DNA of 64,000 bases from Candidatus Omnitrophota bacterium. Its GTDB lineage: Bacteria; Omnitrophota; Gorgyraeia; JACQQV01. The stretch is from contig JACQQV010000008.1 in NCBI GenBank assembly GCA_016206785.1, forward strand, positions 4,402-68,401, given 5' to 3'. Position numbers and translations under genes: made by a program. Under the pieces are notes generated by a model. The model was not told the DNA's origin, ran no database searches, and worked only from the letters and a program-made list of their open reading frames with translations. Positions 16,513 to 49,938 of this stretch are shown here, piece after piece. The number at the start of each line of letters is the position of its first letter. Position 1 is the stretch's first letter.

Positions 16513-17572
16513 GGAAATCTTTTTTGGATTCAATGTCTTTCGGTATCTCACCTTCCGTGCCGCTGGCGCCAGCATCACCGCATTCCTCTTGAGTGTCTTG
16601 ATCGGCCCGCTGATTTATCGAAAGATCAAAGCGTTGAGGGTAAGTGAAGATGCGGTTCGAGAGCATGCGCCCTCTCTGACAAAACTCCACCGGAGCAAGA
16701 AGGGAACTCCGACCATGGGGGGACTTGCGATCCTTTTCTCCCTCCTCGGTTCAACGCTCCTCTGGGCCAATCTGAGTAACCCCTATATTCTTCTTCTCCT
16801 CACCGTAAGCATCTGGTTGGGATTGGTGGGGCTTCTGGATGACACCCTCAAGTTCGTGATGAGAAGCTCGCGGGGATTGGCCGCTTCGACAAAATTTTTG
16901 GGCCAGATCATTGCAGGAACCGGGATCGCTCTTTTTCTTTACTTCGCCCCCGATTGGAACAAAATCCTCACCGTTCCCTTTTTGAAAAACTTCAACTTGG
17001 AGCTCGGCCTTCTCTACATTCCGTTTGTCATCCTGGTGATCGTCGGCTCCTCGAATGCGGTGAATCTCACCGATGGATTGGATGGCTTGGCGGTCGGATG
17101 CGTCATTATGGTGGCGATTAGCTACAGCATTCTCGCCTATCTCACCGGGCATGTGAAGTTTAGCGAGTACCTGAAGATTCCTTATGTGGCGGGAAGTGGA
17201 GAATTGGCAATCTTTTGCAGCGCCCTGGTCGGGGCGGGGCTCGGATTTCTCTGGTATAACTGTCATCCGGCCGAGGTCTTCATGGGAGATACCGGCTCGC
17301 TCTCTTTGGGAGGGGTGATCGGGACCGTGGCGGTTTTGATCCATAAGGAACTCGTTCTTTTTATCGCGGGAGGCATCTTTGTGGCGGAGGCGTTCAGCGT
17401 GATCCTTCAGATCCTTTCTTTTAAACTCACCGGAAAAAGAATTTTCTTAATGTCTCCCCTCCATCACCATTTTGAACTGAAGGGATGGGATGAGACAAAG
17501 GTGACCATTCGATTCTGGATCGTCGGCGCGATCCTGGTTTTTTTGAGTCTATCGACGTTAAAGTTGCGTTAA
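16484..17572 (+). CDS. mraY: Phospho-N-acetylmuramoyl-pentapeptide transferase MraY.
   Basis: FNVFRYLTFRAAGA N-terminus. Polytopic. DDxxK / NAVNLTDGLDGLA motifs. Confidence 0.9.
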   Translation: MLYHLLYPLKEIFFGFNVFRYLTFRAAGASITAFLLSVLIGPLIYRKIKALRVSEDAVREHAPSLTKLHRSKKGTPTMGGLAILFSLLGSTLLWANLSNPYILLLLTVSIWLGLVGLLDDTLKFVMRSSRGLAASTKFLGQIIAGTGIALFLYFAPDWNKILTVPFLKNFNLELGLLYIPFVILVIVGSSNAVNLTDGLDGLAVGCVIMVAISYSILAYLTGHVKFSEYLKIPYVAGSGELAIFCSALVGAGLGFLWYNCHPAEVFMGDTGSLSLGGVIGTVAVLIHKELVLFIAGGIFVAEAFSVILQILSFKLTGKRIFLMSPLHHHFELKGWDETKVTIRFWIVGAILVFLSLSTLKLR

Positions 17573-17573
17573 A

Positions 17574-36182: not shown

Positions 36183-37868
36183 ATGGGGGTGAAACCGACA
36201 AAAAAAAGGGTAGGACGGAAGACTGAACTTTTTTGGCTCAATACCCTCTATGAAATCGTTCGAGATGTCAATTCAACCTTAGGCCTCAAAAGCACCTTAA
36301 AGACGATTGTTGAAAAGGCAAAGACACTCCTTAAAGTCGAACGGGCTTCTCTCATGCTTCTCGATAAGAAAGGGAAGACGCTCACCATCCATTTTGCGGA
36401 GGGCCTCTCCCCCTTGATTCTCCGCAATACGCGCATCAGGATCGGCGAAGGCGTTTCCGGATGGGTGGCTCAAAAGGGGAAGCCGCTTCTCATCCAAGAC
36501 ATTAGCAAAGACCGGCGCTTCAAGAAAAAAGAAGGGGCCCGCTACTCCACCGATTCCCTCCTTTCGGTTCCCCTCAAGGTCAAAGGAAAAACAATCGGCG
36601 TTTTAAATGTCAACAATAAAAGAGGAAGGAAGATTTTTACCCACGACGACCTGGAACTTTTAACCGCCCTTGCCGATGAAGCGGCGATCGCCATCCACAA
36701 TGCAACGCTTTATGATGAACTGGTCCAGGTGAATGAGCGTCTCAAGGAACTCGATAAACTGAAATCCGATTTTGTGGCGAAGGTCTCCCATGAACTTCGA
36801 ACCCCTCTTGCCACAACCCGTTACTTTATTACCGCGGTGCGGGGGGAGACCCAGAACACAGGCGCAACCCGCCAGAAAGAATACCTGGGCCTCATCGAAG
36901 ACAACCTTGACCGACTCACGCGGCTCATTGATAATCTCCTCGATTTTTCCAAGATGGAGGTGGGACGGTTTGAACTGAAGAAGGAGCGCGTCGATCTTTT
37001 ATCGATTGCGCGGTCGGCGATCGAAACCCTCCGAAGAAAAGGAGAGGAAAAGGAGATCGCCTTGGTGCTCTTAAGTCCAGGAAAAGTTCCTCCCACCTAT
37101 TTGGATCAGGACCGGATGACCCAAGTAGTCACGAATCTCGTCGACAATGCGATCAAGTATACCCCTTCAAAGGGGTCTGTTTCGGTTGAGATCAAAAGGG
37201 GGAACGGGAATATTCTCCTCACTGTTCGAGATACCGGGGTCGGGATCCGTTCGTCCGATCAGGAAAGGCTTTTCGAAAAGTTCCGGCAGCTCGGACCGAG
37301 CATCCCCCACGAAAAAGGGGTAGGGTTGGGGCTCGCCATTGTGAAAGAGATTGTAATACTTCACAAAGGAAAGATCTGGGTAAAATCGCAGGAAGGGAAG
37401 GGGAGCACATTCACCATCTCCCTTCCGGTTTTAAGCGACGAAGAATTTTTTATGGAGAGGTTGTCGCAGGAAATTCAGAAGGCGCGTGAAAACGGGGATT
37501 TCCTCTCCCTCGTGATTTTAGGAATTGCAAATTTCGAGCATCTTAAAGAAAATATCGGAGAAGAAGGGATGGAATCCCTTTTGGATGAGATCGCCCGCCT
37601 GGTGAAGGAAACGGTCCGCCGACCGAGCGACATCGTCGCCAGTTACAAGCAGGGGAAGGTGATCGCCATTTTAGCGGGTGCCGATAAGGCGGGGGCACTC
37701 GCGCTTGCAGAACGTGTGAAAAAGACGATCCTTTCTCAGCCTTTTCCGATCAAGGGTTCCCCGGTTTCACCGGAACTTCAGTTCGGGATCGGGACCTTTC
37801 CGGAGGATGGAGGAAGCCAAGAAGAATTGGTGAAGCAGGCAGAAAAAAGTTTATACGGTCATTCCTAA
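36183..37868 (+). CDS. GAF-sensor histidine kinase with a C-terminal degenerate GGDEF domain (RxxD I-site retained).
   Basis: GAF (LLKVERASLMLLD...GEGVSGWV). HisKA H-box (SHELRTPL). HATPase_c (NLVDNAIKYT...GVGLGL). C-terminal GGDEF fold with A-site SYKQGK in place of GG(D/E)EF, preceded by RPSD (RxxD). Confidence 0.7.
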   Translation: MGVKPTKKRVGRKTELFWLNTLYEIVRDVNSTLGLKSTLKTIVEKAKTLLKVERASLMLLDKKGKTLTIHFAEGLSPLILRNTRIRIGEGVSGWVAQKGKPLLIQDISKDRRFKKKEGARYSTDSLLSVPLKVKGKTIGVLNVNNKRGRKIFTHDDLELLTALADEAAIAIHNATLYDELVQVNERLKELDKLKSDFVAKVSHELRTPLATTRYFITAVRGETQNTGATRQKEYLGLIEDNLDRLTRLIDNLLDFSKMEVGRFELKKERVDLLSIARSAIETLRRKGEEKEIALVLLSPGKVPPTYLDQDRMTQVVTNLVDNAIKYTPSKGSVSVEIKRGNGNILLTVRDTGVGIRSSDQERLFEKFRQLGPSIPHEKGVGLGLAIVKEIVILHKGKIWVKSQEGKGSTFTISLPVLSDEEFFMERLSQEIQKARENGDFLSLVILGIANFEHLKENIGEEGMESLLDEIARLVKETVRRPSDIVASYKQGKVIAILAGADKAGALALAERVKKTILSQPFPIKGSPVSPELQFGIGTFPEDGGSQEELVKQAEKSLYGHS

Positions 37869-38261
37869 ATGGGACAGAAAAGAATCCTTGTCGTCGAAGA
37901 TGAAGCAGATTTTTCAAAAGCCCTGAGGGCAGTGCTTGAGGGCCAGGGTTTCGAGGTCCATACAGCCGCCACAGGCAAGGAAGGGCTTTTCCTTGCCAAA
38001 AGCATTACGCCAGACCTCATCATTCTCGATGTGATGCTTCCTGAAATTGACGGCTACAAGGTCTGCCGTCTCCTTAAGTTCGACGAACGCTACAACAAAA
38101 TTCCGATCATCATGCTGACCGCCCGTGCCCAAGAGGAAGACAAGAACCTGGGGCAACAAACCGGTGCAGATGCCTACCTGGTCAAAGGTCAAAAGCCTGA
38201 AGTGCTGATCGAGCAGATCAAAGCGATTCTTGCAAAAGGTCCTTCTCTCCCGCCCGCTTAA
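37869..38261 (+). CDS. Stand-alone response-regulator receiver (CheY-like).
   Basis: ILVVEDEADF...ILDVMLPEIDG...IIMLTA...DAYLVK receiver motifs. 130 aa. No output domain. Confidence 0.8.
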   Translation: MGQKRILVVEDEADFSKALRAVLEGQGFEVHTAATGKEGLFLAKSITPDLIILDVMLPEIDGYKVCRLLKFDERYNKIPIIMLTARAQEEDKNLGQQTGADAYLVKGQKPEVLIEQIKAILAKGPSLPPA

Positions 38262-38287
38262 TCTTCTTAAATCTTTTTATCACCTAT

Positions 38288-38315
38288 TGACTTTTTAAAA
38301 CTCTCATGATATACT
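38288..38315 (+). promoter_or_regulatory. Sigma70 promoter. TTGACT-N16-TGaTATACT.
   Basis: TTGACT at 38288-38293, TATACT at 38310-38315. Confidence 0.6.
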
Positions 38316-38338
38316 TTTAACAGATATTTAGAAAGTTC

Positions 38339-38373
38339 ACCCCGTTAGAAAGGGTGTAACTTTCTAACGGGGT
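38339..38373. repeat. 14-bp perfect inverted repeat ACCCCGTTAGAAAG-N7-CTTTCTAACGGGGT (copy 1 of 3).
   Basis: Arms at 38339-38352 and 38360-38373. Lies in the 5' UTR immediately before the AAAGGAG RBS of the HTH gene. Confidence 0.85.
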
Positions 38374-38384
38374 AAAGGAGCCGG

Positions 38385-38609
38385 ATGAAACAGGTCGCTT
38401 TTGCAAGGTCGAATTCCCAACTCATGACGGTCGAGGAGGTTGCCCGTTATCTTGGAATTCATGCCATCACCGTTTATCGGATGCTCAAGAAAACAGACAT
38501 CCCTGCCACCAAACTGTTAGGGAAGTGGCGTTTTAAGAAGGATGTCCTGGACCGCTGGCTCGAATCCCGGATGGAGGAAAGATCTCTTCCCCTCAAACGG
38601 AGAAGGTGA
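38385..38609 (+). CDS. Excisionase-family helix-turn-helix DNA-binding protein (HTH_17-like).
   Basis: MTVEEVARYLGIHAITVYRMLKKTDIPATKLLGKWRFKKDVLDRWLE matches the excisionase-family HTH domain. 74 aa. The stop is 4 nt before the pilB2 start. Confidence 0.65.
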   Translation: MKQVAFARSNSQLMTVEEVARYLGIHAITVYRMLKKTDIPATKLLGKWRFKKDVLDRWLESRMEERSLPLKRRR

Positions 38610-38613
38610 AGCG

Positions 38614-40287
38614 ATGCCGAGGCAGAAGAATCTATCTTTAGAAGAGGTGATCCTGGCCAAGGGACTGTTGGATCCTGAACGGCTGGAAAGGGCCAAAAAA
38701 GAATCAGAAAACTCGAAGGAATCTCTTCAGAAAACTTTGATCCGGCTGGGATATCTTACAGAAGAATTACTCATTCCTCTTTTGGAGGAACGGTCCGGCC
38801 TTCCCTACGTGGATCTCGATACCTACACGATGGACCCCGAACTCATTAAGCTCATTCCGGAGGCGGTTGCGCGCCGGTATCAACTGATCCCTCTTTTTAA
38901 GATCGGAAAGATCCTCACGGTGGCGATGGCAGATCCCTCCAACTATTTTGCCCTCGATGAAATACGCCTTAAGGCCCATTGCGATGTGGAGGCGGTCGTG
39001 AGTACCGAAGAGAAGATCCGACAGGCGATCGACCAACACTATGGTACTGGTGGTTCCATGGAAGCATTGGTGAAGTCGATTACCCAGCGGACGATGGATC
39101 TGGGGGATGAAAAATTGGTAGAAGAAGCCCCCATTATCCAACTCGTCAACCTCCTCATTTCCCAAGCGGTCCGGGAAAGGGCGAGCGATATCCATATTGA
39201 GCCGGAGACAGACACATTGCGCATCCGCCTTCGGATTGATGGCGTTCTTCATGAAATTCCTGCTCCCCCGAAGGAATTGGAACGGGCGGTGATCTCCCGG
39301 ATCAAGGTCCTTTCAAAGATGGACATCGCAGAAAGAAGAATTCCTCAGGATGGACGTTTCAGGGTGCAGGTCGATCACAAAGAGATTGATCTGCGCGTTT
39401 CAACGATTCCAAGCCATCATGGAGAGAATGTGGTCATGAGGCTTCTGGATACAGCGACCGTCTTGATCGGCCTCGAGGAACTCGGTCTTCCGCATGATGC
39501 CTTTGAACCCTTTCATCATCTGATCCACCGGCCGCATGGCATCATTCTTGTGACAGGTCCCACAGGAAGCGGGAAGACAACGACACTTTATGCGTGTCTC
39601 AATAAAATCAGCACCCTTGAAAAAAATATCATCACGATTGAAGATCCGATCGAATATGAAATGGAAGTCATCCGCCAAATGCAGGTCAATCCCAAGATCG
39701 GCGTTACCTTTGCAAACGGCCTCCGCTCCATCTTAAGGCAAGACCCAGACATCATCATGGTCGGCGAGATCCGTGATGTAGAGACTGCAGAGATGGCGAT
39801 TCACGCGGCCCTCACAGGACATCTTGTTTTCTCAACCCTTCATACCAACGATGCCCCGGGGGCGCTTACCCGTCTTATGGACATGGGTGTTGAGCCATTC
39901 CTTATCGCCTCTTCTGTGATCGGGATCGTGGCCCAGCGGCTCGTCCGACTCATCTGCCCGCAATGCAAAAAATCGTATGTCCCTTCCCAAGAACTTTTGA
40001 AGACATTAAGGCTTCCTCTCGGGAAGGGCCCCATTCCCCCTCTGTATCGGGGAGAAGGATGCCGTTTCTGCAAGGAGACAGGATACAAAGGAAGGACCGC
40101 GATTTTTGAACTGATGGTCATGGAGGAGGAAATCCGGGAACTGGTGATTCAGAGAGCCTCTTCGCCAAAAATGAAGGATGCGGCCTGTCGGAAGGGCATG
40201 CAGGTTTTGAGGGAGGATGGCCTGGCCAAGGCGATGGCAGGAATTACTTCGATTGAAGAAGTGCTTCGTGTGACGCAGGACGAGTAA
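38614..40287 (+). CDS. gspE: Second PilB/GspE-family secretion ATPase.
   Basis: Walker A GPTGSGKTTT. Asp and His boxes. CPQC...CRFC Zn motif. N-terminal GSPII_E_N-like domain. The track start at 38542 overlaps the HTH gene, so the start is ATG 38614. Confidence 0.9.
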   Translation: MPRQKNLSLEEVILAKGLLDPERLERAKKESENSKESLQKTLIRLGYLTEELLIPLLEERSGLPYVDLDTYTMDPELIKLIPEAVARRYQLIPLFKIGKILTVAMADPSNYFALDEIRLKAHCDVEAVVSTEEKIRQAIDQHYGTGGSMEALVKSITQRTMDLGDEKLVEEAPIIQLVNLLISQAVRERASDIHIEPETDTLRIRLRIDGVLHEIPAPPKELERAVISRIKVLSKMDIAERRIPQDGRFRVQVDHKEIDLRVSTIPSHHGENVVMRLLDTATVLIGLEELGLPHDAFEPFHHLIHRPHGIILVTGPTGSGKTTTLYACLNKISTLEKNIITIEDPIEYEMEVIRQMQVNPKIGVTFANGLRSILRQDPDIIMVGEIRDVETAEMAIHAALTGHLVFSTLHTNDAPGALTRLMDMGVEPFLIASSVIGIVAQRLVRLICPQCKKSYVPSQELLKTLRLPLGKGPIPPLYRGEGCRFCKETGYKGRTAIFELMVMEEEIRELVIQRASSPKMKDAACRKGMQVLREDGLAKAMAGITSIEEVLRVTQDE

Positions 40288-40288
40288 G

Positions 40289-41500
40289 ATGCCGGTCTAT
40301 ACCTACAAAGCGCGTGATGCATTCGGTCATGTGATTCATGGAAGGATGGAAGCGAAGGACGAGGAGACTCTTGCCACCCGGCTTAAAAAGCTCGGGTTTC
40401 TGGCTACCGCCCTTCGGGAGAAGACCGAGACCTTCGCGATCGAAGACCTCCTCGAGACATTCCGGCGGGTGAAGGAAGATCACCTTGTCATGACGACATT
40501 ACAACTCTCCAAGATGGTCCGTGCAGGGATCCCTCTTCTGGATACCTTAAAAACGCTCACCGATCAGACAGAAGACCGTTATTTTCGGGCAGTCCTCGCC
40601 GACGTGTCGAGGAACGTGGAAGGGGGGAGCGCTCTTTCTGAAGCACTTTCTCAATATCCCCGCATCTTTGATGCAGGGTATGTGAGTATTGTGAAGGCGG
40701 GTGAGACGAGCGGAAAACTTCCGGATGTTCTCGAAAGAATCGCGCAGCTTTTAGAGGATCGTCTGGAGCTCAAGCAAAAAATTAAAACAGCGCTCATGTA
40801 TCCCTGTGTTTTGCTTGTCTTCGGGGTTTGTCTCTCCGGTTTTATGGTGGTTTATCTTTTGCCCTCATTTATGGATATTTTTCAGAAGGCGAAAGTTCCC
40901 CTTCCCAGCCCGACGCAATTCCTCTACGACGTAAGCCAATTCCTCCGTCACTGTTGGGGGCTGATCCTCTTTGTCGTTCTTTCTCTCCCGTTTATCTGGC
41001 AGTCTCTCCTTCATTGGAAAAAGAGCCACATTCTCATCGACCGGTTCTTTTTGGAGTTCCCGCTTTTCGGGCCGCTCGTCCGTCAGGTCACGGTCACCCG
41101 ATTCGCCCAGAATCTTGAAACACTCCTTTCAAGCGGCGTACCGATCTTAGAGGCGTTGGATGTGGCGAAAAAGACCTCAGGGAATCTTGTCATGATGGAG
41201 GTTCTGGAGAAGGCGCAGGCGCGGGTCTCTCAAGGAGAATCTTTGGCGAAACCGCTCAAGGAGAGCAAGGAGTTTCCCCTCATGCCGGTTCATATGATTG
41301 CGGTGGGAGAGGAGTCTGGGACGCTCGATGAGATGCTCGGCCATATCGCCAGTTTCTACCAAAAGACGGTGGATCATGCCATTAAACAGCTCACTGCGCT
41401 GGTAGAGCCCCTCTTTCTCATTCTCATGGGAGGGATGGTCGGTTTTATCATGGCCTCCCTTCTTCTTCCGATCTTTAGGATGGTTAAACTCATTCAATAA
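40289..41500 (+). CDS. gspF: Second PilC/GspF-family platform protein.
   Basis: Two GspF repeats, 3 TM, ~400 aa. Confidence 0.9.
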   Translation: MPVYTYKARDAFGHVIHGRMEAKDEETLATRLKKLGFLATALREKTETFAIEDLLETFRRVKEDHLVMTTLQLSKMVRAGIPLLDTLKTLTDQTEDRYFRAVLADVSRNVEGGSALSEALSQYPRIFDAGYVSIVKAGETSGKLPDVLERIAQLLEDRLELKQKIKTALMYPCVLLVFGVCLSGFMVVYLLPSFMDIFQKAKVPLPSPTQFLYDVSQFLRHCWGLILFVVLSLPFIWQSLLHWKKSHILIDRFFLEFPLFGPLVRQVTVTRFAQNLETLLSSGVPILEALDVAKKTSGNLVMMEVLEKAQARVSQGESLAKPLKESKEFPLMPVHMIAVGEESGTLDEMLGHIASFYQKTVDHAIKQLTALVEPLFLILMGGMVGFIMASLLLPIFRMVKLIQ

Positions 41501-41503
41501 AGG

Positions 41504-41532
41504 TTGACAAAAAAGGAAAATTGTGGTATTCT
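41504..41532 (+). promoter_or_regulatory. Sigma70 promoter. TTGACA-N17-TGgTATTCT.
   Basis: TTGACA at 41504-41509, 17-nt spacer, TATTCT at 41527-41532. AAGGGGGAG RBS follows, before ATG 41606. Confidence 0.6.
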
Positions 41533-41605
41533 ATAAAGTTGGTATTTCATAGTCTCACAATGAGATAGGTGAATTTTCCATAGGCGAAAAAAGGGGGAGT
41601 GACAA

Positions 41606-42103
41606 ATGACCAAAAAAAGTGCTTTTACCCCGTTAAAGATGAAATCTTTAACGGGGTTTACCCTTATTGAACTGATGATCGTCATGGCGGTGATTGCGAT
41701 CTTAATCGGTATCATCCTCCCGATGGTTGGGGGGTTTCGAGAAGAGGCGAACATCAACCGGGCGAGGGGAGATTTGTCCACGTTACGAACCGCGATGGAG
41801 TCTTATTATATTCACCACAGTAACGCCTATCCGCCAGCGCTTACCGGACTCACCGACACGACGACAAATCCGAAGATTGTCACAAGAATTCCGGATGATC
41901 CTTTTTTGCCGGGAACGACCTATCAGGTTCTTTACAGTACCAATAACCAGTTCTACGCGCTCTGGTCGGTTGGACCGGGGGGAACAGCTTCTGTCACAGC
42001 AGTAGCAAACACAGGGGGTGTGACCCAAGCCCAAGGAGCGGGGGCTCGGAACCCGATCTGGGTTGCCAATGGGGATGAACAGACTCCTGCCGAATCCCCT
42101 TAA
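41606..42103 (+). CDS. gspG: GspG-like major pseudopilin (prepilin-type N-terminal cleavage/methylation domain).
   Basis: G|FTLIELMIVMAVIAILIGIILP with E+5. RARGDLSTLRTAMESYY resembles the GspG helix. Two candidate starts, ATG 41606 (strong RBS) or ATG 41639. Confidence 0.8.
   Translation: MTKKSAFTPLKMKSLTGFTLIELMIVMAVIAILIGIILPMVGGFREEANINRARGDLSTLRTAMESYYIHHSNAYPPALTGLTDTTTNPKIVTRIPDDPFLPGTTYQVLYSTNNQFYALWSVGPGGTASVTAVANTGGVTQAQGAGARNPIWVANGDEQTPAESP
41627..41657. repeat. 14-bp perfect inverted repeat ACCCCGTTAAAGAT-gaa-ATCTTTAACGGGGT (copy 2) enclosing ATG 41639.
   Basis: Arms at 41627-41640 and 41644-41657. The second arm encodes KSLTG of the prepilin leader. Confidence 0.85.
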
Positions 42104-42150
42104 CCTCTGAGGAGCCCGTTCATTTTAACGGTTGGAAACAAGAAAACTTC

Positions 42151-42179
42151 AGGCCCCTTTCTGCAAGAAGGGGCTTTTT
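42151..42179 (+). terminator. Intrinsic terminator between the gspG-like and gspI-like genes.
   Basis: GCCCCUU-UCUGCAAGA-AGGGGC hairpin followed by UUUUUUG. Confidence 0.7.
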
Positions 42180-42201
42180 TGTTTGAGGTCTTATTTTCAA
42201 G

Positions 42202-42630
42202 ATGACCCAAAAAGGATTTACCCCGTTAGAGATGAAATCTCTAACGGGGTTTACCCTGATTGAACTGATCCTTGCTATTATTCTTTTTGCAGGGGCGACG
42301 GTCCCTCTCCTCCTCGCTCTCAATCAGGGGCTTTTTGCCACCACCTATTCGGAACATCGTCAGATCGCCGTAGGTCTCGCCCTCAATGAACTGGAGGATG
42401 TGGAACGGGATGCGGGACAAAATTGCGGTCGGTGGGATCGGGTGAGGAACGCCGCCAAGGCCCCCATTGCGGATTTTCCGACATTCCAAAGGCAAATTGT
42501 TGTTTCGAATCCTCCCGGTACGGATACGAATTTAAAAGAGGTGCGCGTCATCGTCTATTGGACGGATCAGGTAGAAAATTCAGCAACGCTTGTCACTTAT
42601 TTTGTGAACAATCCGAACGGTTGCCCATGA
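42202..42630 (+). CDS. gspI: GspI/PilV-like minor pseudopilin.
   Basis: G|FTLIELILAIILFAGA with E+5. ~140 aa. Candidate starts ATG 42202 (no RBS) or ATG 42232 (inside the hairpin). Confidence 0.7.
   Translation: MTQKGFTPLEMKSLTGFTLIELILAIILFAGATVPLLLALNQGLFATTYSEHRQIAVGLALNELEDVERDAGQNCGRWDRVRNAAKAPIADFPTFQRQIVVSNPPGTDTNLKEVRVIVYWTDQVENSATLVTYFVNNPNGCP
42220..42250. repeat. 14-bp perfect inverted repeat ACCCCGTTAGAGAT-gaa-ATCTCTAACGGGGT (copy 3) enclosing ATG 42232.
   Basis: Arms at 42220-42233 and 42237-42250. It differs from copy 2 by a compensated A/G plus T/C pair. Confidence 0.85.
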
Positions 42631-43271
42631 AAAAAAGTGGTTTAACCCTTATGGAACTGATGCTCGTTATGATTGGGATGTCGATCCTGTTTGGCGTCGG
42701 CGTCTTCGCTTTTCTGGCCGCTTCCAAAGCGGTCCAGAGGCAGCAGGAAAGAATTTCACCGGGAGAGGAACTTTCACAGGGACTGCAGAAGGTGGCGCGG
42801 GAACTTCGGGAAGCGGCCGATGATGCCATCGGAGATTCGAACGGAACGATCACACAGTCTAGTAGTACCGGCGGTAGCGGGAATATTGCCAACACCATTC
42901 GATATCAGGATGTGGAGGATAATCAATTTTACGTCCTCTATCTTTATGGCATTGATGGTGATTCTTCTACGCCAGATGATACCGTTTTCGACAGCTCGTA
43001 CATTTCTACCGTCCTTTATCAGTTACGATTAGCACCTGCCGCGGGATTCACGTATGGTTCAGGAAGAATTTTGGCGCGAACCATCATGTCTCCCAATGCG
43101 TCGGACCCGGTCGATCAGGCGGTGATTCAGCGGGGAAGCGGTCGTGAGCAGCGACGGATCGAACTCATACTGACCGCAACACAGATTTCTGGAGCAGTTT
43201 CTCAAAAAAGCGAGAAGGTCAAAATGCGCCTTATGATCCGTCCAAGAAATCAGGGAAACTCAGTCATTTAG
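42627..43271 (+). CDS. GspJ/PilW-like minor pseudopilin.
   Basis: MKKSGLTLMELMLVMIGMSILFGV prepilin-type N-terminus. Start ATG 42627 overlaps the upstream stop (ATGA). Confidence 0.65.
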   Translation: MKKSGLTLMELMLVMIGMSILFGVGVFAFLAASKAVQRQQERISPGEELSQGLQKVARELREAADDAIGDSNGTITQSSSTGGSGNIANTIRYQDVEDNQFYVLYLYGIDGDSSTPDDTVFDSSYISTVLYQLRLAPAAGFTYGSGRILARTIMSPNASDPVDQAVIQRGSGREQRRIELILTATQISGAVSQKSEKVKMRLMIRPRNQGNSVI

Positions 43272-43281
43272 GAGAAAAGGA

Positions 43282-43749
43282 ATGAACCTGAGGAATCACA
43301 GAGGGGTGACCCTTCTCCTTGTTTTTATCTTGATGATCGCTCTCCTCGGCCTTGTCTCTTCTTTTCTTTTCATGGCGATGGTGCAGGCCCGTCATTCAGG
43401 AGGGCATCTCGATGATGAGAAAGCCTTTTACGTGGCTCAAGCGGCACTGCGAAGAGGGGTCTGGCGCCTTCTTTATACGGAACCCCCTCCTCTTACGAAT
43501 TGGAGACTTAACGACGGAACTTGGCCGAAAACTGAACCATCGGGTTCCATGGACACGGGAGATGGGATGACCGGGACTTATTCTCTCACGGTGACACTGA
43601 CGGCCCTCGACGGAGGCCCTTGGAATGTTACCTTTGACGCGACCGGTACCATGCATGGTATTTCCCGTCGGGTTCAGCGCATCTACCGTTCTACAAACCT
43701 CAATGTGAACGCTTTAACGCCTGTCTTTAACTCATGGAAAGAAATTTGA
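43282..43749 (+). CDS. GspK/PilX-like minor pseudopilin (short).
   Basis: RGVTLLLVFILMIALLGLV (GspK-type, no Glu+5). DEKAFYVAQAALRRGVW helix. Confidence 0.6.
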   Translation: MNLRNHRGVTLLLVFILMIALLGLVSSFLFMAMVQARHSGGHLDDEKAFYVAQAALRRGVWRLLYTEPPPLTNWRLNDGTWPKTEPSGSMDTGDGMTGTYSLTVTLTALDGGPWNVTFDATGTMHGISRRVQRIYRSTNLNVNALTPVFNSWKEI

Positions 43750-45419
43750 ACAACATCCTTCGTCGCATCGATTGGAAGAAAGGGATTGAAAAAATCCCGT
43801 GGAAAAGGGAAGAGTTTGTCCTCAGTCTCGACATCGGGACGAGTGCCATCAAGTGGGTTCTTTTGAGAAATTCAAAGGAAGGACCCCTTTTTTTGGAAGG
43901 GGGGATGGAAGATCCGAAAAACCTCCGGGCGATTCTTGAGAAAAAGGCGACGTCCAAAAAGTGCAGGGTGCGGATCGCGATCTCGGGGCCAAAGGTTCTT
44001 TTAAAAAGGGTCCTTCTTCCCAAGATGCCACCTCAAGAGATTGAGACGGCCTTGCGTTGGCAGGTGAAAGAGGAAATCCCTTTTCCGATTCAAGAAGTCT
44101 ATCTTGATTTTCAGGAGATTCGCTCTATTGAAAAGGAAGGAAAGCATCTCCTTGATCTTCTGGTGGGGGTCGTCCATAAAGAATTGGTCGATTCCCTTTT
44201 AAGTATCGGTCCCTTTGAGATAGACACGATTGAGCCGGCTCTCCTTCTTCTTCCCCGTCTTTTTTCCCTTGAAAAGAGAAACGATTATGCACTCATCGAT
44301 TTGGGCGCCTCCACCACCCATGTCGGCATTTTTCATGAAGGGATATTGGAGATGGCAAGGGAGATCTCGATTGGAGGAGAGACCCTGACCCAGGCCTTAA
44401 CCTGTGAAATCATGATTGGGGAAAAGAAATGCTCCCTGGGGAAAGAAGAGGCGGAAAAGGCAAAACTCTCTTACGGTATTTCTCAAGAGACTTCCACCGC
44501 TTCCGTCGGTACGGAGATGCCGCCGGAGAAATTGTGGGTTCTCATGCGGCCGATTCTTGAAAGACTTCTTGGGGATCTGGAACGTTTCTTCCAGTTTTAC
44601 GAGAAGAGAGATCCTCCTCGCGAAATTCAAGAAGTCTGGGTCACCGGAGGCGGTGCCGGCCTTCAGCATCTCGACGATCTTCTGAAGAGGCATCTCGGTC
44701 TTGCACCTGAAGGACTTTCCTTTTTGAGTCAATTTCGTTTTTCGCAAGGCTTTTTGAGAGACACCCCCCAGGAGGAGATTGAAAGGCGTCTGGGTGTGGC
44801 TGTGGCGGCGGCCCTTCCTCGGAAAGAGATCATCAATTTTCTCCCGCCCTCTGTGAAGGCTTCGCGGCAATGGCGGTTTCGGGTCCGGATGACAAAAACC
44901 GCTTCTTTCTTGACCATCATTTTTTTGGCAGGGTTTCAGCTTTTCTTTGCCATCGAGAGGGTGGCATTGAAAAACGCGATTCAAAAGAAAAAGAAAATCT
45001 GGGAGGAACTCGCTTCCCAGCGGGAGACCTATATGCGTTGGATGGACAAGAAGAAGCATGCCGAAAAGGTGGTTCAAACGTTTTCAAATTTTTTGGAGAG
45101 AGAACCTCTGTGGGAGGGAGTCTTAAAAGAACTTTCTTGGCTCGTTCCGAAAGCGGTTTCTTTAAAGGAGCTCAAGATGGAAAACGGTTCTTTAAGTCAA
45201 GGAAAGAAGAACTACCGGGTTCATCTCAAGGGGGAGGTGGGAGGGTCAAAGGAATCGGCAGAGGAGACCCTCACCCATTTCTTGGAGGCGCTTGAAGCTT
45301 CTCCCTTCTTTGAGGGAATCCGACTTGTTTCGACGGAAGGGGAGGCCTCTTCCGAAGGAGGGATTCCATTTGAAGTTACCGGCCAGCTTGAATTGGAAGG
45401 CGCTTCAAAAGAGGATTGA
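43734..45419 (+). CDS. GspL-like assembly protein: PilM-type actin-like cytoplasmic domain fused to a PilN-type TM and periplasmic domain (copy 1).
   Basis: LSLDIGTSAIKWVLL and ALIDLGASTTHVGIF actin-fold motifs. Then TM SFLTIIFLAGFQLFFAI and a coiled-coil periplasmic region. Confidence 0.7.
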   Translation: MERNLNNILRRIDWKKGIEKIPWKREEFVLSLDIGTSAIKWVLLRNSKEGPLFLEGGMEDPKNLRAILEKKATSKKCRVRIAISGPKVLLKRVLLPKMPPQEIETALRWQVKEEIPFPIQEVYLDFQEIRSIEKEGKHLLDLLVGVVHKELVDSLLSIGPFEIDTIEPALLLLPRLFSLEKRNDYALIDLGASTTHVGIFHEGILEMAREISIGGETLTQALTCEIMIGEKKCSLGKEEAEKAKLSYGISQETSTASVGTEMPPEKLWVLMRPILERLLGDLERFFQFYEKRDPPREIQEVWVTGGGAGLQHLDDLLKRHLGLAPEGLSFLSQFRFSQGFLRDTPQEEIERRLGVAVAAALPRKEIINFLPPSVKASRQWRFRVRMTKTASFLTIIFLAGFQLFFAIERVALKNAIQKKKKIWEELASQRETYMRWMDKKKHAEKVVQTFSNFLEREPLWEGVLKELSWLVPKAVSLKELKMENGSLSQGKKNYRVHLKGEVGGSKESAEETLTHFLEALEASPFFEGIRLVSTEGEASSEGGIPFEVTGQLELEGASKED

Positions 45420-45978
45420 GAAAAGAGATCTTCTTCTGATAGGAGCCGTGGGGGCCCTTTTCTTCCTTCTTCTCCTTTATGGGTTTTGGTTTCGTCCCCG
45501 TCTCCGGCTGATTCAGGGACTCTCTCGGGAACTTCAGACGCTCCGGATCCAAATCAGGGATGCGCAGCTCTTGGAGAATGTGTCCCGCATCCAGAATGAA
45601 ATTTCCGAGATCGAGAAGACCTACGGAGGAAGATTTTTCAAGCGGAATGAAATCCCACGCGCCTTGGAATTTTTGAAGGATTACCTCACAAAATATCGCT
45701 TGGACATTCTGTTTCTTAAACCTGAATTGAAGGAGGATCTCTCTCCTTTTGTCTTGGGTCCCACTCTTTTCCTGGATACCATTCCTGTTCGCCTTCGCCT
45801 CAAAGGGGATTATGTAGATACGGGACGCTTTTTAGGAAGCCTTAAGGAACTTCCTTTTCTAACAACCGTGGAACTTCTTCAGATGGGGAGCCCTCAAACG
45901 GTCTATCCGAAAGTGGAAACTCAGCTCACGTTATTCCTTTATCTTGAAAGACAAGAAGGAGCCGTTCGTGGAAGGTAA
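45388..45978 (+). CDS. GspM/PilO-like bitopic protein (copy 1).
   Basis: TM LLLIGAVGALFFLLLLYGFWF, a coiled coil and a C-terminal domain. Start uncertain (track TTG 45292; TTG 45388 proposed). Confidence 0.55.
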   Translation: MNWKALQKRIEKRDLLLIGAVGALFFLLLLYGFWFRPRLRLIQGLSRELQTLRIQIRDAQLLENVSRIQNEISEIEKTYGGRFFKRNEIPRALEFLKDYLTKYRLDILFLKPELKEDLSPFVLGPTLFLDTIPVRLRLKGDYVDTGRFLGSLKELPFLTTVELLQMGSPQTVYPKVETQLTLFLYLERQEGAVRGR

Positions 45979-46405
45979 AAAGCAGAAGATCCTCATCCTT
46001 TTTGCCCTTTGCCTTGTGGTGATGGGCGTCTGGTCCCGCGTGCTGTTGAAAAAAAGAGTGCTTAAGATGCAGGGCCCGCCACAGACAGAAGAAAGGGCCT
46101 TCTCCGGGAGAAGCACTTCCCTTTCGTCGCGGTCGCTCAGGAAACTTCAAGAGGGAAAGATGGTCAAAGAGTGGAACCGAAATCCTTTCCTTGCGATCGG
46201 GAAAGAAAAAGAGGCGACCTACCTCTCAGGGCTTTCTTTGACCGGGATCCTCTGGGATAAGGATCGGCCCCTCGCCATGATTAATAACGTTGTCGTGAGC
46301 GTCCATGATACGATCGATAGTTATACCATCAAAGAGATCGCCTCTGATGCTGTGGTCCTTGAACGGGACGGCGAAGAATATGTCCTTCGATTGGGGGCGA
46401 AATAA
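45968..46405 (+). CDS. PilP/GspC-HR-like protein (copy 1).
   Basis: N-terminal TM. C-terminal beta-domain LTGILWDKDRPLAMINNVVVSVHDTIDSYTIKEIASDAVVLERDGEEYVLRL. GTG 45968 is preceded by AAGGAG. Confidence 0.6.
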   Translation: MEGKKQKILILFALCLVVMGVWSRVLLKKRVLKMQGPPQTEERAFSGRSTSLSSRSLRKLQEGKMVKEWNRNPFLAIGKEKEATYLSGLSLTGILWDKDRPLAMINNVVVSVHDTIDSYTIKEIASDAVVLERDGEEYVLRLGAK

Positions 46406-46424
46406 GGGGGCCCTGTTCTTCCCG

Positions 46425-46453
46425 TTGACATCCTGAGAGATGTATGCTAACTT
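46425..46453 (+). promoter_or_regulatory. Sigma70 promoter. TTGACA-N17-TGcTAACTT.
   Basis: TTGACA at 46425-46430, 17-nt spacer, TAACTT at 46448-46453. Precedes the second gspL-like gene. Confidence 0.5.
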
Positions 46454-46475
46454 GTTGTGTTATAGGATGTAAGAA

Positions 46476-48179
46476 ATGAAGCCACCCGCCACAAAGATCC
46501 CGTTGGAAAAGATAAAATTGAGCAAAAAGGAAACCCTCTCACTCTTAAGTTATGCCTTGGGAGTGGGTGAGAAGCCGGGTCCCTTTGCCGCTCTCTCCGT
46601 CGGAAACCGTTCTTTAAAATTGGTGGAGGTCATGGTTGAAGAAGGGAAACGGGAACTCTTGGGGCATTGGTTTAAGGAAATTTTCATCAGGGAAGATCTT
46701 GCGGAGGATCTGAGACAGAAGGAGCTTCAAAAAAGCGCCATCGCTTTTTTGAAAGGGTGCCCGATCTCTTCCAGGAAAATCCACCTCGGTTTTGGAGCAG
46801 AGGTGATGCCTGTGAAGAAGGTGACTGTTCCAGAGATGCCGAAGGAAGAACTTCCTCAGGCCCTCCGATGGGCGGTCCGTGCCCAGCTCCCCTTTGATGT
46901 AGAACGGGCCCTCTTCGAATTTGACATCTTAAGTACAGTGGGAAGGAAGCAAGAGGCCGTTGTCGTCTCTGCCCGCGAGGGGCTTCTCACGGAGTGGGTG
47001 TTTACGATGCAGGAGGCAGGTTACCACGTGGCCAGTATCACATCCAATCCATTATCCCTTTTGGCCTGGATGAAAGAAGGGAATATTCTTTCAGGGCCAG
47101 ATCCGATCGCTTTGTTGGACATCGGGACCCTGCGCACCTCTCTTTATATTTCGATCCATGGGAAGCCCAGTTTTATACGGGAGCTGGACATCGGGGGTGA
47201 GGCCATCACTCAAGCCTTGACCCGTCCCCTCGCGACGGAGAGGGGGGAGCTCAAACTGGGTTACGAAGAAGCCGAACAGCTCAAACGTTCTTACGGCTTT
47301 CCTCTGGAAGGGCAGATCTCCGATGAAAAAGTCAATGCCTCTCAAATAGTTTCTTTAATGCGTCCTCTTCTGGAACGGCTGGCGAGCGAGATCAGACGCT
47401 CTTTTGATTATTATCAGGAAGAATTTGAAGGTCGGGTCCAGAAGGTTTACCTGTTGGGGGGTTCTTCCCACCTCAAACATCTCACCGACTTTCTTTCGGA
47501 AAAATTGGTCCTTTCGGTCGAGATCCTTCCTTTACCCCCAGGGTTTCTCTGGCAGACGCAGAAGATCAACGAGGCGGATCTCCGCGAACGTTTGCCCCTC
47601 CTCGCCCCTGCTCTCGGTCTGGCGTTTCAGGAGGGGAGGGGATTTAACCTTTTGCCATCCCGCTTCCGACTGAAGAAATCGCAGAAGGTCGAGCGGATCG
47701 CGATGAGGATCTCCACGATCGTCATCGTCTTCATGCTTTTCATCGTTTTTTCTTATCGATTGAAAGAGGTCGGTTCACTGGAGAGGCAGCGCTCCCTTTC
47801 GCAGTCCTCCTGGAAGGCGATCCAGGAGATCGAAACGATGAAACAGGCGCTTAAGGAGCGAAGAGGGGTCGTTGCGAAAATCAAAGAGGGGCACCCTTAT
47901 CTCTTGGAGACTCTCTCGGAAATCTCCAGTCTTCTTCCCCCGCATGCAGTGCTTGATAAGATCTCACAACCGCGGGGAACCGCCGAACTCCATTTTTCAG
48001 GGACGATTTTCGGGTTGCATGAGAAGTCTACGGAGGTTCTACTGGGAGAACTGATCTCCAGTTTTGAAAAATCTCCTTTTGTTAAAGAGGTGAAGTTGGT
48101 TTCATTCCAGCGGGATGAGACGTACGATCGGCCTGCCAGTAATTTTGAAATTTTTTTCCGGTTAAAGGTGCACCAATGA
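46476..48179 (+). CDS. GspL-like PilM+PilN fusion protein (copy 2).
   Basis: LLDIGTLRTSLYISI and ELDIGGEAITQAL actin-fold motifs. TM ISTIVIVFMLFIVFSY. Periplasmic coiled coil. Confidence 0.7.
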   Translation: MKPPATKIPLEKIKLSKKETLSLLSYALGVGEKPGPFAALSVGNRSLKLVEVMVEEGKRELLGHWFKEIFIREDLAEDLRQKELQKSAIAFLKGCPISSRKIHLGFGAEVMPVKKVTVPEMPKEELPQALRWAVRAQLPFDVERALFEFDILSTVGRKQEAVVVSAREGLLTEWVFTMQEAGYHVASITSNPLSLLAWMKEGNILSGPDPIALLDIGTLRTSLYISIHGKPSFIRELDIGGEAITQALTRPLATERGELKLGYEEAEQLKRSYGFPLEGQISDEKVNASQIVSLMRPLLERLASEIRRSFDYYQEEFEGRVQKVYLLGGSSHLKHLTDFLSEKLVLSVEILPLPPGFLWQTQKINEADLRERLPLLAPALGLAFQEGRGFNLLPSRFRLKKSQKVERIAMRISTIVIVFMLFIVFSYRLKEVGSLERQRSLSQSSWKAIQEIETMKQALKERRGVVAKIKEGHPYLLETLSEISSLLPPHAVLDKISQPRGTAELHFSGTIFGLHEKSTEVLLGELISSFEKSPFVKEVKLVSFQRDETYDRPASNFEIFFRLKVHQ

Positions 48180-48778
48180 ATCTTCCAACACCTCTCAGCA
48201 AGATCTTCAAGGCTCGATTCAGTCATCGCGAACTGGTCCTCTGGTCGATCGGCCTCATTCTTTTCATCGTTCTTTTTATACAGTTTTTCATTATCCCGGC
48301 TGGCCATCGCGCCCTCCGACTCAAGAAAGAAATTGCCGTCATGAAAACACGCTATCAACAACTGGTCGCGCAAGAGGGATCTTTGGAGCAGACCATCATT
48401 TCCCTGCAGAAAGAGCTCACGAGCCTGGAAGAGAGTCTTCCCCACCAAGAGAAAATTTCAGGAATTCTAAAGGCCCTCTCGGAGAAGGCCAGTCATTTGG
48501 GCATTCAGGTTATTTCGATACGTCCCGAATCGGCCGTCCCTTACCCCAATGCGACAAATCCCCTCCTTTTGGGCGGTCGGTCTTGCGAGGCCCTTTCGAT
48601 TCAGATGGAACTTCGGTGTTCCTATCGGGTGCTGGGAGGATACCTCACCTCGATTGAACAGGCATTTCCCTCCGCGATTACGATAGACGGAGTGAATATT
48701 CAAAAGGAGGGTGGGAAATCTTCCACCCTGAAGGTAACCCTTTTTGTGACAACCTATCTTTTCGGAAATTCTCCGTAA
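48176..48778 (+). CDS. GspM/PilO-like protein (copy 2).
   Basis: TM LVLWSIGLILFIVLFIQFFII, a coiled coil and a C-terminal domain. ATGA overlap with the upstream gene. Confidence 0.6.
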   Translation: MNLPTPLSKIFKARFSHRELVLWSIGLILFIVLFIQFFIIPAGHRALRLKKEIAVMKTRYQQLVAQEGSLEQTIISLQKELTSLEESLPHQEKISGILKALSEKASHLGIQVISIRPESAVPYPNATNPLLLGGRSCEALSIQMELRCSYRVLGGYLTSIEQAFPSAITIDGVNIQKEGGKSSTLKVTLFVTTYLFGNSP

Positions 48779-48786
48779 GGTTCCCT

Positions 48787-49251
48787 ATGGCTGGCGACCC
48801 GCAGAAAGAAAGAAGGAAAAAGATCATCGCAGTCGTCCTTGTCTGCTTCTTTCTCCCCCTTCTCTGGTATAACGTGCATCGTGCGCAGAAGAGTATTTCT
48901 CCGGTGCCACAAACGATGCCTCCGCAAGAAACACCTCCCTCTCCCGCCTCTTCTGAAGCGTTGACGGCAACGGAACTTCTCACGTGGAAACGGGATCCTT
49001 TTATTTTGGGTATCGGGAAAGAAGGTGAGCTTCCGACATTGCAACTCAAGGTGAGCGGGATTATCTACGATGAGACACGGCCTGAAGCGACCTACGCGAT
49101 TATTAATGAAGAGGTAGTCCGGATCGGGGATAACCTCCACGGGATTAAGGTGATCGACATTCAACCCGATTATGTGCGTCTCAAGAAATTTAACCAAGAA
49201 GTGATCCTTTATCTTTACCAGGAAAAAGTCACAGGGGAAGAGGGAGAATGA
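48787..49251 (+). CDS. PilP/GspC-HR-like protein (copy 2).
   Basis: TM. Pro-rich linker. LKVSGIIYDETRPEATYAIINEEVVRIGDNLHGIKVIDIQPDYVRLK beta-domain. Confidence 0.6.
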   Translation: MAGDPQKERRKKIIAVVLVCFFLPLLWYNVHRAQKSISPVPQTMPPQETPPSPASSEALTATELLTWKRDPFILGIGKEGELPTLQLKVSGIIYDETRPEATYAIINEEVVRIGDNLHGIKVIDIQPDYVRLKKFNQEVILYLYQEKVTGEEGE

Positions 49252-49257
49252 GAGGGG

Positions 49258-49938
49258 TTGGGAATCAGGGAAAAGATTTTATCCATTCGAGAAAGGATTG
49301 AGCGCTCCAAACGGAATGCCCCGGAGTTAAACACCCCTGTTCTTTTGGTGGGGGTTACAAAGGGGGTCGGACTTGAGAGACTTCGAGAGGCGATTCAAGG
49401 AGGACTCGGTGATCTGGGAGAGAATCGCGTTTTAGAAGCGCAAGGAAAAATCTCCCACGTACAGGAGGGTGTTCAGTGGCACATGGTGGGACACCTCCAA
49501 AGAAATAAGGTGAGAGATGCGATACAACTTTTCCATCTTATCCACTCGGTCGATTCTCTTCGCTTGGCCCAAGCGATTGAGAAAGAGGCCTCTCTCGTTG
49601 GAAAAGAAGTTCCGGTCCTCCTCCAGGTAAACCTTCAGGGGAAAACCGCTCCGTTTGGCGCTTCTGTGGACTCCGCGGCATTTCTTGTGAAAGAAATTTC
49701 TTCATTGAAACATCTGAAACTCTCGGGACTCATGACGATCGCCCCCCTCACGGAAGATCCAGAAAAGACGCGTCCTTATTTTAGACGCCTCTGGGAATTG
49801 AAGAAAGCGCTTGAGAGAGAAAACCCTTCGCTGGCATTGCGGTACCTTTCGATGGGAATGAGTCAAGATTTTGAGGTCGCCATCGAAGAAGGGGCAAATG
49901 TGGTGAGGATTGGAAGGGCTATTTTTGGTACAGGGTAA
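49258..49938 (+). CDS. yggS: PLP homeostasis protein YggS/YlmE family.
   Basis: LLVGVTKGV...HMVGHLQRNKV...RIGRAIFG alanine-racemase-N fold. Confidence 0.8.
   Translation: MGIREKILSIRERIERSKRNAPELNTPVLLVGVTKGVGLERLREAIQGGLGDLGENRVLEAQGKISHVQEGVQWHMVGHLQRNKVRDAIQLFHLIHSVDSLRLAQAIEKEASLVGKEVPVLLQVNLQGKTAPFGASVDSAAFLVKEISSLKHLKLSGLMTIAPLTEDPEKTRPYFRRLWELKKALERENPSLALRYLSMGMSQDFEVAIEEGANVVRIGRAIFGTG

Follow-up and report, generated by a model that had tools for sequence, protein, structure and literature searches.

Short palindromic mobile DNA has been described in bacteria in several forms. The Rickettsia palindromic elements (RPEs; Ogata et al. 2000, 2002, via PMC10969869) measure ~100-150 bp and, as far as that account goes, form Rickettsia-specific families that encode a conserved peptide and are dispersed as palindromes inserted in-frame in unrelated genes, essential ones included, where they are tolerated as an extra peptide. 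[quoted passage not shown] REP/REPIN elements are multicopy palindromes of 20-40 nt that lie outside genes, bear a GTAG or CGTC tag, make no target duplication, and are mobilized by RAYT transposases (PMC3733652). In the piggyBac/IS1380 superfamily, the inverted repeats start with CC(C) and a 4-bp AT-rich target (TTAA, TAAA, TCAA, and similar) is duplicated, precise loss being a hallmark of piggyBac (PMC10813416). Here we analyzed a stretch of 64,000 nucleotides from a Candidatus Omnitrophota contig, JACQQV010000008.1 (hereafter the window), in which a GspG-like and a GspI-like pseudopilin gene each contain a perfect hairpin close to the start of the reading frame. We conclude that these hairpins are very probably copies of a mobile palindrome that is MITE-like, very short, and non-autonomous. 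The two palindromes and the insertions to which they belong are located as follows.

41627-41640 and 41644-41657: arms ACCCCGTTAAAGAT and ATCTTTAACGGGGT of the palindrome in the GspG-like gene, loop GAA, 14 of 14 positions complementary
41628..41656: element copy 1, a 29-nt core CCCCGTTAAAGAT-GAA-ATCTTTAACGGGG inside the GspG-like gene, absent at the orthologous site of the relative L002 and present in the relative L001
41624..41627: left TTTA target-site duplication of copy 1, with the direct repeat running on to TTTACCC (41624-41630), from comparison of filled and empty sites
41657..41660: right TTTA of copy 1, which with the element end GGGG gives ...ACG GGG TTT ACC, encoding T-G|F-T, the cleavage site
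42220-42233 and 42237-42250: arms ACCCCGTTAGAGAT and ATCTCTAACGGGGT of the palindrome in the GspI-like gene, loop GAA, 14 of 14 positions complementary
42221..42249: element copy 2, core CCCCGTTAGAGAT-GAA-ATCTCTAACGGGG inside the GspI-like gene, with TTTA at 42217-42220 and 42250-42253

A single compensatory pair is the sole difference between the two palindromes, and shuffles of the window gave 0.00 expected occurrences of the full pattern. Each palindrome is flanked on both sides by the direct repeat GG(A/G)TTTACCC, and the two genes share a 53-nt repeat (family D2) with 94% identity. An ATG spans the border between arm 1 and loop in each (41639 and 42232), arm 2 encodes KSLTG, and further in-frame ATGs lie upstream at 41606 and 42202. 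A preliminary description of the locus was correct in its statements on the sequence, with a qualification. Its characterization of the stems as GC-rich and 14 bp long was accurate for the length and for the outer 6 bp alone, the stems as a whole having only 43-50% G+C. Folded as RNA, the hairpins reach -26.2 and -33.2 kcal/mol (z -3.5 and -5.3), and the uninterrupted start of the neighboring third pseudopilin gene gives a z of +0.14. Each hairpin in the pseudopilin genes corresponds to a 33-nt insertion, composed of the 29-nt core CCCCGTTARA...TYTAACGGGG and a 4-bp TTTA target-site duplication. The window contains 3 copies of the element, the third of which (palindrome 38339-38373) had previously been missed.

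The insertions can be read directly from orthologous sites in two syntenic relatives, of which L002 is the closer (82-88% amino acid identity in neighboring proteins) and L001 the more distant (65-76%). All three window sites are empty in L002. At the GspG-like site, L002 has GCC TTTACCC TGATTGAA where the window has GCT TTTACCC-CGTTAAAGATGAAATCTTTAACGGGG-TTTACCC TTATTGAA; at the GspI-like site, L002 has ATGACCCAAAAAAGT TTTACCC TGATCGAA, with AGT before TTTACCC, and the window has the equivalent 33-nt insertion. The Shine-Dalgarno sequence and start codon upstream of the insertion are kept in filled and empty alleles alike. The preliminary description had named conservation of the upstream ATG and of the FTPL segment in orthologues as a check: the ATG is indeed conserved, but the hairpin and FTPL are absent in the closest relative. 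The closest homologues of the GspG-like protein (P0002, P0003, and P0005) begin with M(H/Y)(K/R)K(S/N)A|FTLIEL and have no extra segment, the same 11 residues are present in the homologue P0004, and P0082 has a longer version. The ancestral leaders in which the insertions sit are short, MxKKSA|FTLIEL and MTQK(G/S)|FTLIEL.

L001 has 4-5 copies within 20 kb. Its G-like copy carries a double compensatory change (ATCCCG...CGGGAT), and its I-like gene contains two tandem copies, of 34 and 32 nt, by which the frame is switched and then restored (FTPLEIRFRNGVYPVRGLPLTG|FTLLEL). A further copy (L001:17349-17379) is inserted in-frame in a gene of the YggS/Ala_racemase_N family (16979-17686), where it adds the 11 residues PVRDKISNGVN between two VN codons (GTGAA repeat); the YggS orthologue of the window (49258-49938) is without the element. 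Presence/absence polymorphism at orthologous sites, as expected of a MITE, is therefore found at three sites relative to L002 and, with L001 filled and the window empty, at YggS. An identical protein occurs on 3 contigs, in NCBI and Logan assemblies. A sequencing or assembly artefact was ruled out by the independent assemblies, a copy in a complete genome (L020), the selection for frame described below, and the compensatory changes.

The element is widely dispersed. A scan of one genome per species with the pattern ACCCCGTTARAN{3,33}TYTAACGGGGT returned at least 119 stretches in species-representative genomes, with ~4 expected by chance as computed from the size of the database. Among the matches listed, the hosts are Omnitrophota, including the complete genome (L020), many lineages of Patescibacteria/CPR (candidate phyla radiation), Planctomycetota, Nitrospirota, Desulfobacterota, Elusimicrobia, and others, as well as some archaeal metagenome-assembled genomes (MAGs). 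Single contigs may hold multiple copies (L039, L073, L090, and L114). Contigs binned as archaeal (Aenigmatarchaeota, Methanosarcinales) carry several, in L039 (2531-2561, 3113-3143, and 3346-3374) and in L047, which indicates either true presence across domains or mis-binning. Viral contigs yielded only 10 matches among 2.9 million, and the idea of a viral vehicle was rejected.

The dispersed copies display the hallmarks of transposition. The middle two flank bases are equal on both sides in 82 of 131 copies, compared with an expectation of 22.4 ± 3.9 and a maximum of 36 in 2000 shuffles, and copies free of the constraint of the search pattern have exact 4-bp repeats (CGAG, TATG, TGGG, and TGAG), with flank identity limited to 4 positions. 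The element thus has a target-site duplication of fixed length, 4 bp, the copy at 38339 excepted, and terminal inverted repeats, CCCCGTTARA / TYTAACGGGG. The pattern imposed only 10 bp of pairing, yet the perfect stems extend to 11-14 bp (mode, 13), and the 31-nt class has 96.3% of its cells paired, its positions 12-14 covarying. From the outside inward, a copy consists of invariant ends of ~10 nt, then 3-4 positions that are variable but complementary, and a short variable interior. Cores range from 24-29 nt up to ~140 nt with a mode of 31 nt, and the interiors, from a few nt to ~120 nt, are unrelated between genomes. The copies are small (elements of 26-140 nt), transposase-free, multiple, and dispersed, as are those of a MITE. 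Two other kinds of repeat were considered and set aside: integron attC sites, in which the GTTRRRY/RYYYAAC boxes stand in the opposite order and which the target-site duplication argues against, and DNA-uptake sequences, ruled out by the target-site duplication, the identity across phyla, and the in-frame bias. An Rfam search of 37800-43500 gave sub-threshold miRNA noise only.

Copies inside coding sequences tend to preserve the frame. Of those within long open frames, 32/38 have an insertion length divisible by 3, and only two reading frames of the element are used, ...TPL(E/D)...LTG... and ...(N/H/Y)PV(R/K)...SNGV...; the third contains a TAG or TAA stop in GTTAGA/GTTAAA. Besides YggS, the hosts other than pilins include IF-2, in a Jorgensenbacteria MAG, and radical-SAM enzymes, all in-frame (L018:2205-2238, L054:3278-3332, and L091:3837-3888), from which it follows that essential genes tolerate an insert of 11-19 residues.

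The prepilin leader is a recurrent site of insertion. Scanning metagenomes for the element followed by TTT ACN YTN NTN GA, we obtained at least 120 stretches in which it occupies the GGN-TTTA-CN position of prepilin genes. Among the matches listed, to which the pilin counts here and below refer, 114/124 copies are in-frame and the TTTA right junction seen at 41657..41660 recurs in 124, with a left flank that is mostly GGN TTT or GCN TTT and a leader architecture of M-x(3-6)-(G/A/S)-FTPLE...(F/S)LTG|FTLIEL. The 100 analysable hosts fall into 40 clusters at ≥40% identity and contain 84 distinct element sequences, and therefore represent many events and not one expanded paralogue. Within a genome, gene conversion between the conserved N-termini of pilins may be a further means by which copies spread. 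Some leaders contain two or three tandem copies (L206:8745-8809 and upstream, L142, L158, and L244; for example, GFTPLEVGRARERPRLLTG three times over), as fits re-insertion into a regenerated TTTA target. The commonest metagenomic pilin form, a 55-nt class (L135-L254; for example, ACCCCGTTAGAAATAAAGAATTCTAATGGGGCAAGTAAAAGATTTCTAACGGGGT), combines a full copy that has decayed with a solo right end; in Planctomycetota-like pilins it encodes FTPLEIKISN(G/R)xSKRFLTG, with the palindrome decayed and the frame kept.

These observations suggest the following course of events in the window. The element landed, in two prepilin genes, in the TTTA of GGN-TTT-ACN, the codons for Gly(-1)-Phe(+1)-Thr(+2). 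The 33-nt insertion amounts to 11 codons, stop-free in that frame and read as T-P-L-(E/K)...L-T-G, and the right end of the element together with the duplicated TTTA rebuilds GGG-TTT-ACC, so that both the G|F-T cleavage motif and the TTTA target are restored. The ancestral upstream ATGs would stay in use, with a leader merely 11 residues longer and an unchanged mature pseudopilin. Since the leader is removed from the mature protein, such an insertion is expected to be nearly neutral. Mobilization would occur in trans, by a DDE-type transposase that makes 4-bp staggered cuts.

The host genes and the ribosome-binding site are located as follows.

41606..42103, + strand: GspG-like major pseudopilin gene, leader MTKKSAFTPLKMKSLTG of 17 amino acids, cleavage predicted before F18, Shine-Dalgarno sequence and ATG kept in filled and empty orthologues
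41591..41599, + strand: Shine-Dalgarno sequence AAGGGGGAG serving ATG 41606, predicted to be unpaired with a probability of 0.33 when the element is present and 0.22 when it is removed
42202..42630, + strand: GspI-like minor pseudopilin gene, predicted leader MTQKGFTPLEMKSLTG of 16 amino acids, ATG context TTTCAAGATG kept in L001 and L002

Both proteins are of prepilin type, with TIGR02532 above cutoff and a G|F-x-x-x-E motif followed by a hydrophobic helix. The labels GspG-like and GspI-like denote best hits only: the first protein scores 55.4 bits against GspG TIGR01710, its best hit but below the cutoff of 88.85, and 26.7 against Pfam T2SSG (cutoff 21); the second gives a weak match to GspI TIGR01707 (21.4 bits; cutoff 44.35). 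In the GspG-like protein, Pfam N_methyl aligns to residues 16-38 and NCBIfam TIGR02532 to residues 17-38; in the GspI-like protein, they align to residues 15-30 and 16-31, respectively. Apart from the N_methyl match beginning at residue 15 of the latter, the profile models thus align only from residue 16-17 of the window proteins.

Among in-frame pilin copies, a Met inside the element is found in 7/113 (6%) and an upstream in-frame Met in 106/113 (94%), the original leaders behind such an upstream Met usually being 5-7 residues long, basic, and ending in G (82) or A (18). The loop ATG is absent from the I-like copies of L001 and out of frame in L004. Retention of the upstream Met, lack of conservation of the loop ATG, conservation of the Shine-Dalgarno sequence and ATG, and the point at which the profiles begin to align together place the translation starts, as far as sequence can indicate, at 41606 and 42202, with leaders of 17 and 16 residues. 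The region upstream of ATG 42202 offers only a GAGG, 12 nt away. It is by accident of the loop variant found in the window (GATGAAATC) that an ATG stands at the apex.

Prepilin peptidase requires a Gly(-1) adjacent to the hydrophobic segment, and cleavage is accordingly predicted at G17|F18 and G16|F17; the upstream G-F-T-P-L-E pseudo-site is probably not used. Type IVb prepilins have leaders of ~15-30 residues that are cut by prepilin peptidase before a G|(F/M)xxxE N-terminus. The leader in the window, in contrast, is a short leader like those of type IVa pilins and type II secretion systems (T2SS) plus an 11-codon insertion with two G-F-T motifs, and its length is not a family trait.

The third copy lies outside the pseudopilin genes, downstream of a sigma-70-like promoter.

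38340..38372: element copy 3 (palindrome 38339-38373), core CCCCGTTAGAAAG-GGTGTAA-CTTTCTAACGGGG, in the 5' untranslated region between the promoter and the Shine-Dalgarno sequence of the HTH_17 gene, site empty in L001 and L002
38287..38315, + strand: sigma-70-like promoter TTGACT-17-TATACT preceding copy 3 and the HTH_17/GspE operon, kept in both L001 and L002
38385..38609, + strand: gene for an HTH_17 / excisionase-family DNA-binding protein, kept in L001 and L002, both without the upstream element; context and not part of the element

Its outer 9 bp are identical to those of the pilin copies; the inner stem differs yet is complementary, and the loop has 7 nt. The small HTH_17 gene precedes a GspE-like ATPase gene.

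Compared with the systems outlined at the outset, the element behaves as a MITE with the coding-sequence habit of an RPE. With RPEs it shares in-frame coding insertion (32/38 copies in long frames, 114/124 in pilins) but neither size, family, nor Rickettsia lineage; unlike RPEs as they are presented in PMC10969869, it goes down to a 29-nt core, has invariant 10-nt ends and a 4-bp duplication, occurs in many phyla, and recurs at one site in prepilin leaders. Terminal inverted repeats, a target-site duplication, a lack of coding capacity, hairpin-forming transcripts, and in-frame insertion are traits it has in common with bacterial MITEs, from which it differs in conserving only its ends, the smallest copies being approximately two joined ends. 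It resembles REP/REPIN elements in size and copy number, but it has CCCCGTTAGA ends and a 4-bp duplication, is often inside open reading frames (ORFs), and has no RAYT-like neighbor that we could see; it is not restricted to extragenic DNA and does not carry the tag. It lacks the features by which REP elements and RPE families are defined. The 4-bp duplication and the ends starting with CC(C), similar to the left inverted repeat of ISEcp1 (CCTAGATTCTACGT), are shared with the piggyBac/IS1380 superfamily, as is the precise loss implied for L002, but this is a resemblance only; the targets are not confined to TTAA, and 1.7 Mb of element-bearing DNA contained no such transposase or full-length element.

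Several results weigh against a MITE-like element. The testable properties of a MITE are all present with the exception of an autonomous partner: a search of 1.70 Mb of element-bearing DNA for pairs of termini 0.6-4.5 kb apart yielded neither an autonomous element nor a transposase with these termini. Termini 0.09-5 kb apart correspond only to longer MITE-like members (92-140 nt) and to chance pairs of separate small copies; phmmer, queried with the ISEcp1 transposase, detected no IS1380-type transposase among 1781 ORFs of the window and all loci, although an enzyme encoded elsewhere in the genomes may act in trans; and no protein family recurs near the element (maximum, 7/119 loci), all-versus-all clustering of 1151 nearby ORFs having given housekeeping families only. 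At the GspG-like site, the window and the more distant L001 share one variant but the closer L002 is empty, which requires either precise loss or repeated insertion; seamless excision, or slippage between the 7-bp TTTACCC repeats, could have produced a precise loss. The three copies of the window all fall within 4 kb of a single pilus locus, with none in the other 60 kb. Copy 3 has mismatched flanks (TTCA/TAAA) and is an exception to the 4-bp duplication, and the same flank pair, TTCA...TAAA or its reverse-complement equivalent TTTA...TGAA, is found in ~12 other copies (L024, L037, L064, L069, L075, L089, L115, and others), which may constitute a subfamily whose inverted repeats are longer and imperfect, or may be copies within larger repeats. 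As to the scans, the outer A...T of the family pattern partly imposes a T-N-N-A flank shape, the counts from both collections are lower bounds with an arbitrary sample of matches, and taxon labels are as deposited, so that those of MAGs may include mis-binned contigs.

The preliminary description had offered two explanations for the hairpins, a structured start codon and a duplicated processing motif, and both now appear improbable. On the first, 41639 and 42232 would be the true starts, and the hairpin would hold them at its apex so that translation of the pilins is throttled or regulated. The leader would then have a textbook form, MKSLTG|FTLIEL, and the ATG does lie at the apex of a 14-bp stem, but neither internal ATG is preceded by a Shine-Dalgarno sequence, and the strong one, which belongs to ATG 41606, is conserved in the empty orthologue as well. 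A hairpin that sequesters a start codon should hold a conserved codon that is the start in use; here the element Met is confined to the 6% of pilin copies noted above, is missing or out of frame in the I-like gene of L001 and in L004, and the palindrome is shared with unrelated genes and with intergenic DNA. A trap specific to this locus is further argued against by L002, which is empty with the same Shine-Dalgarno sequence and ATG, and by in silico removal of the element, which leaves the predicted unpaired probability of the upstream AUG unchanged (0.82 for the G-like and 0.52 for the I-like gene): the hairpins begin 21 nt and 18 nt, respectively, after the start codon, and their folds are self-contained. 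We regard a start-codon trap as very improbable. The second explanation, in which the cleavage segment underwent an internal tandem duplication and GFTLIE diverged to GFTPLE, we consider hardly credible. GG(A/G)TTTACCC does form a direct repeat, the Glu at +5 is retained in FTPLE, and the part of the proposal that stands is a long leader with two G-F-T motifs and TTTACCC, which contains the F-T codons, on both sides. Only 7 nt are duplicated, however, and the intervening 26 nt are a perfect palindrome that matches a family dispersed in non-pilin genes. Drift could not build a perfect 14-bp palindrome twice, and the comparison of filled and empty sites and the dispersed copies contradict the duplication. 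The residues PL(E/K)...LTG are not a diverged copy of FTLIE; they come from a dispersed palindromic element that occurs, across many phyla, in unrelated genes and also between genes, and the idea of an evolved duplicated processing motif is not supported.

The clustering of the copies and their placement around the HTH_17 gene invite regulatory explanations. Were the palindromes operators bound by the adjacent HTH_17 protein, the protein would control its own operon as well as the pilin genes; the 9-bp half-sites are identical and one palindrome lies between the promoter and the HTH gene, but the half-sites are spaced by 13 versus 17 bp, L001 and L002 keep the HTH gene (76-81% identity) without the upstream site and L002 without all three, and the palindrome is present in >100 genomes without a recurrent neighbor family. 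Operator sites are in our judgment extremely improbable. More deserving of consideration, although still unlikely, is that the insertions have been exapted and now tune expression of the pilus locus, for example through slower early elongation 21 nt after the start, stabilization of the mRNA 5' end, or accessibility of the HTH_17/GspE Shine-Dalgarno sequence. This is compatible with a mobile origin and would account for three copies clustered in one 4-kb pilus locus, for retention of the G-like copy in L001 with a double compensatory change, for the great stability of the hairpins, and for a predicted accessibility of the HTH Shine-Dalgarno sequence that rises from 0.23 to 0.68 with the element. 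Against it, L002 has the same operon with all three sites empty, old copies borne by pilins (for example, the 55-nt class) lose the palindrome and keep the frame, the accessibility of the pilin Shine-Dalgarno sequences and AUGs is unchanged, and homogenization of the arms can also yield compensatory changes in a DNA palindrome.

A dispersed MITE-like element remains the reading we prefer, and a wider proposal built on it is quite possible, although we advance it tentatively: the window copies may belong to a new family of ultra-short palindromic transposable elements with a core of 29-140 nt, CCCCGTTAGA ends, and a 4-bp duplication, spread across many phyla (Omnitrophota, Patescibacteria/CPR, Planctomycetota, Nitrospirota, Desulfobacterota, and possibly DPANN archaea) and inserted in-frame in coding sequences, for which the prepilin leader would be a self-regenerating safe harbor that allows tandem pile-ups, and which is perhaps moved by an unrecognized piggyBac/IS1380-like enzyme with seamless excision. 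In the searchable literature, which covers part of published work, we found no description of the element, matches being primer coincidences or general papers on MITEs, RPEs, or REPs. If undescribed, it ranks with the smallest elements known to bear the marks of transposition, and conservation of its ends across phyla implies either a conserved enzyme or frequent horizontal transfer. Selfish DNA within protein-coding genes, a phenomenon of Rickettsia, would extend to many lineages. For annotation, hundreds of pilin-type genes in uncultivated phyla would carry a leader insertion of 11-19 codons, which can mislead start calling, leader or signal prediction, and family models. For pilus biology, the prepilin leader appears to tolerate large insertions if the G|F site beside the helix stays, leaving two candidate cleavage sites per protein. 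Screens for structured RNA call for caution as well: a stable hairpin at a start codon, with compensatory changes, resembles a riboregulator and yet can be the footprint of a transposon.

Two further features lie beside the pseudopilin genes.

41504..41532, + strand: sigma-70-like promoter TTGACA-17-TATTCT upstream of the GspG-like gene, 10/12 matches with a TG extension, a consensus match only
42151..42176, + strand: hairpin and T-run resembling an intrinsic terminator, between the major (G-like) and the first minor (I-like) pseudopilin genes

The terminator-like hairpin is strong and conserved in L002, and it could plausibly set the stoichiometry of major and minor pilins separately from the palindromes. 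Synteny with L001 and L002 is conserved over 36183-38261 and 38385-49251 of the window, which encode a GAF-HisKA-HATPase-GGDEF hybrid protein, a response regulator, HTH_17, GspE, GspF, four pseudopilin-like proteins, two PilM/N-like fusion proteins, and PilO-like proteins; within this syntenic stretch we saw neither a secretin gene nor one for a prepilin peptidase. Upstream of the pilus locus are a second T2SSF gene (32267-33502) and a further pilin (ATG ~33805, MERTKKRTHRG|FTLIEL), and neither this pilin nor the third pseudopilin at 42627 contains a degenerate copy of the element. Two other inverted repeats in the window are unrelated to the element family. At 1891-1941, near the start of the ORF at 1823-2248, is an 11-bp inverted repeat (TCGTGAAGCGT / ACGCTTCACGA) whose right arm is tandemly duplicated 14 nt apart, and at 46726-46753, within the second PilM/N-like gene (46476-48179), is a perfect 12-bp palindrome, TTCAAAAAAGCG-CCAT-CGCTTTTTTGAA.

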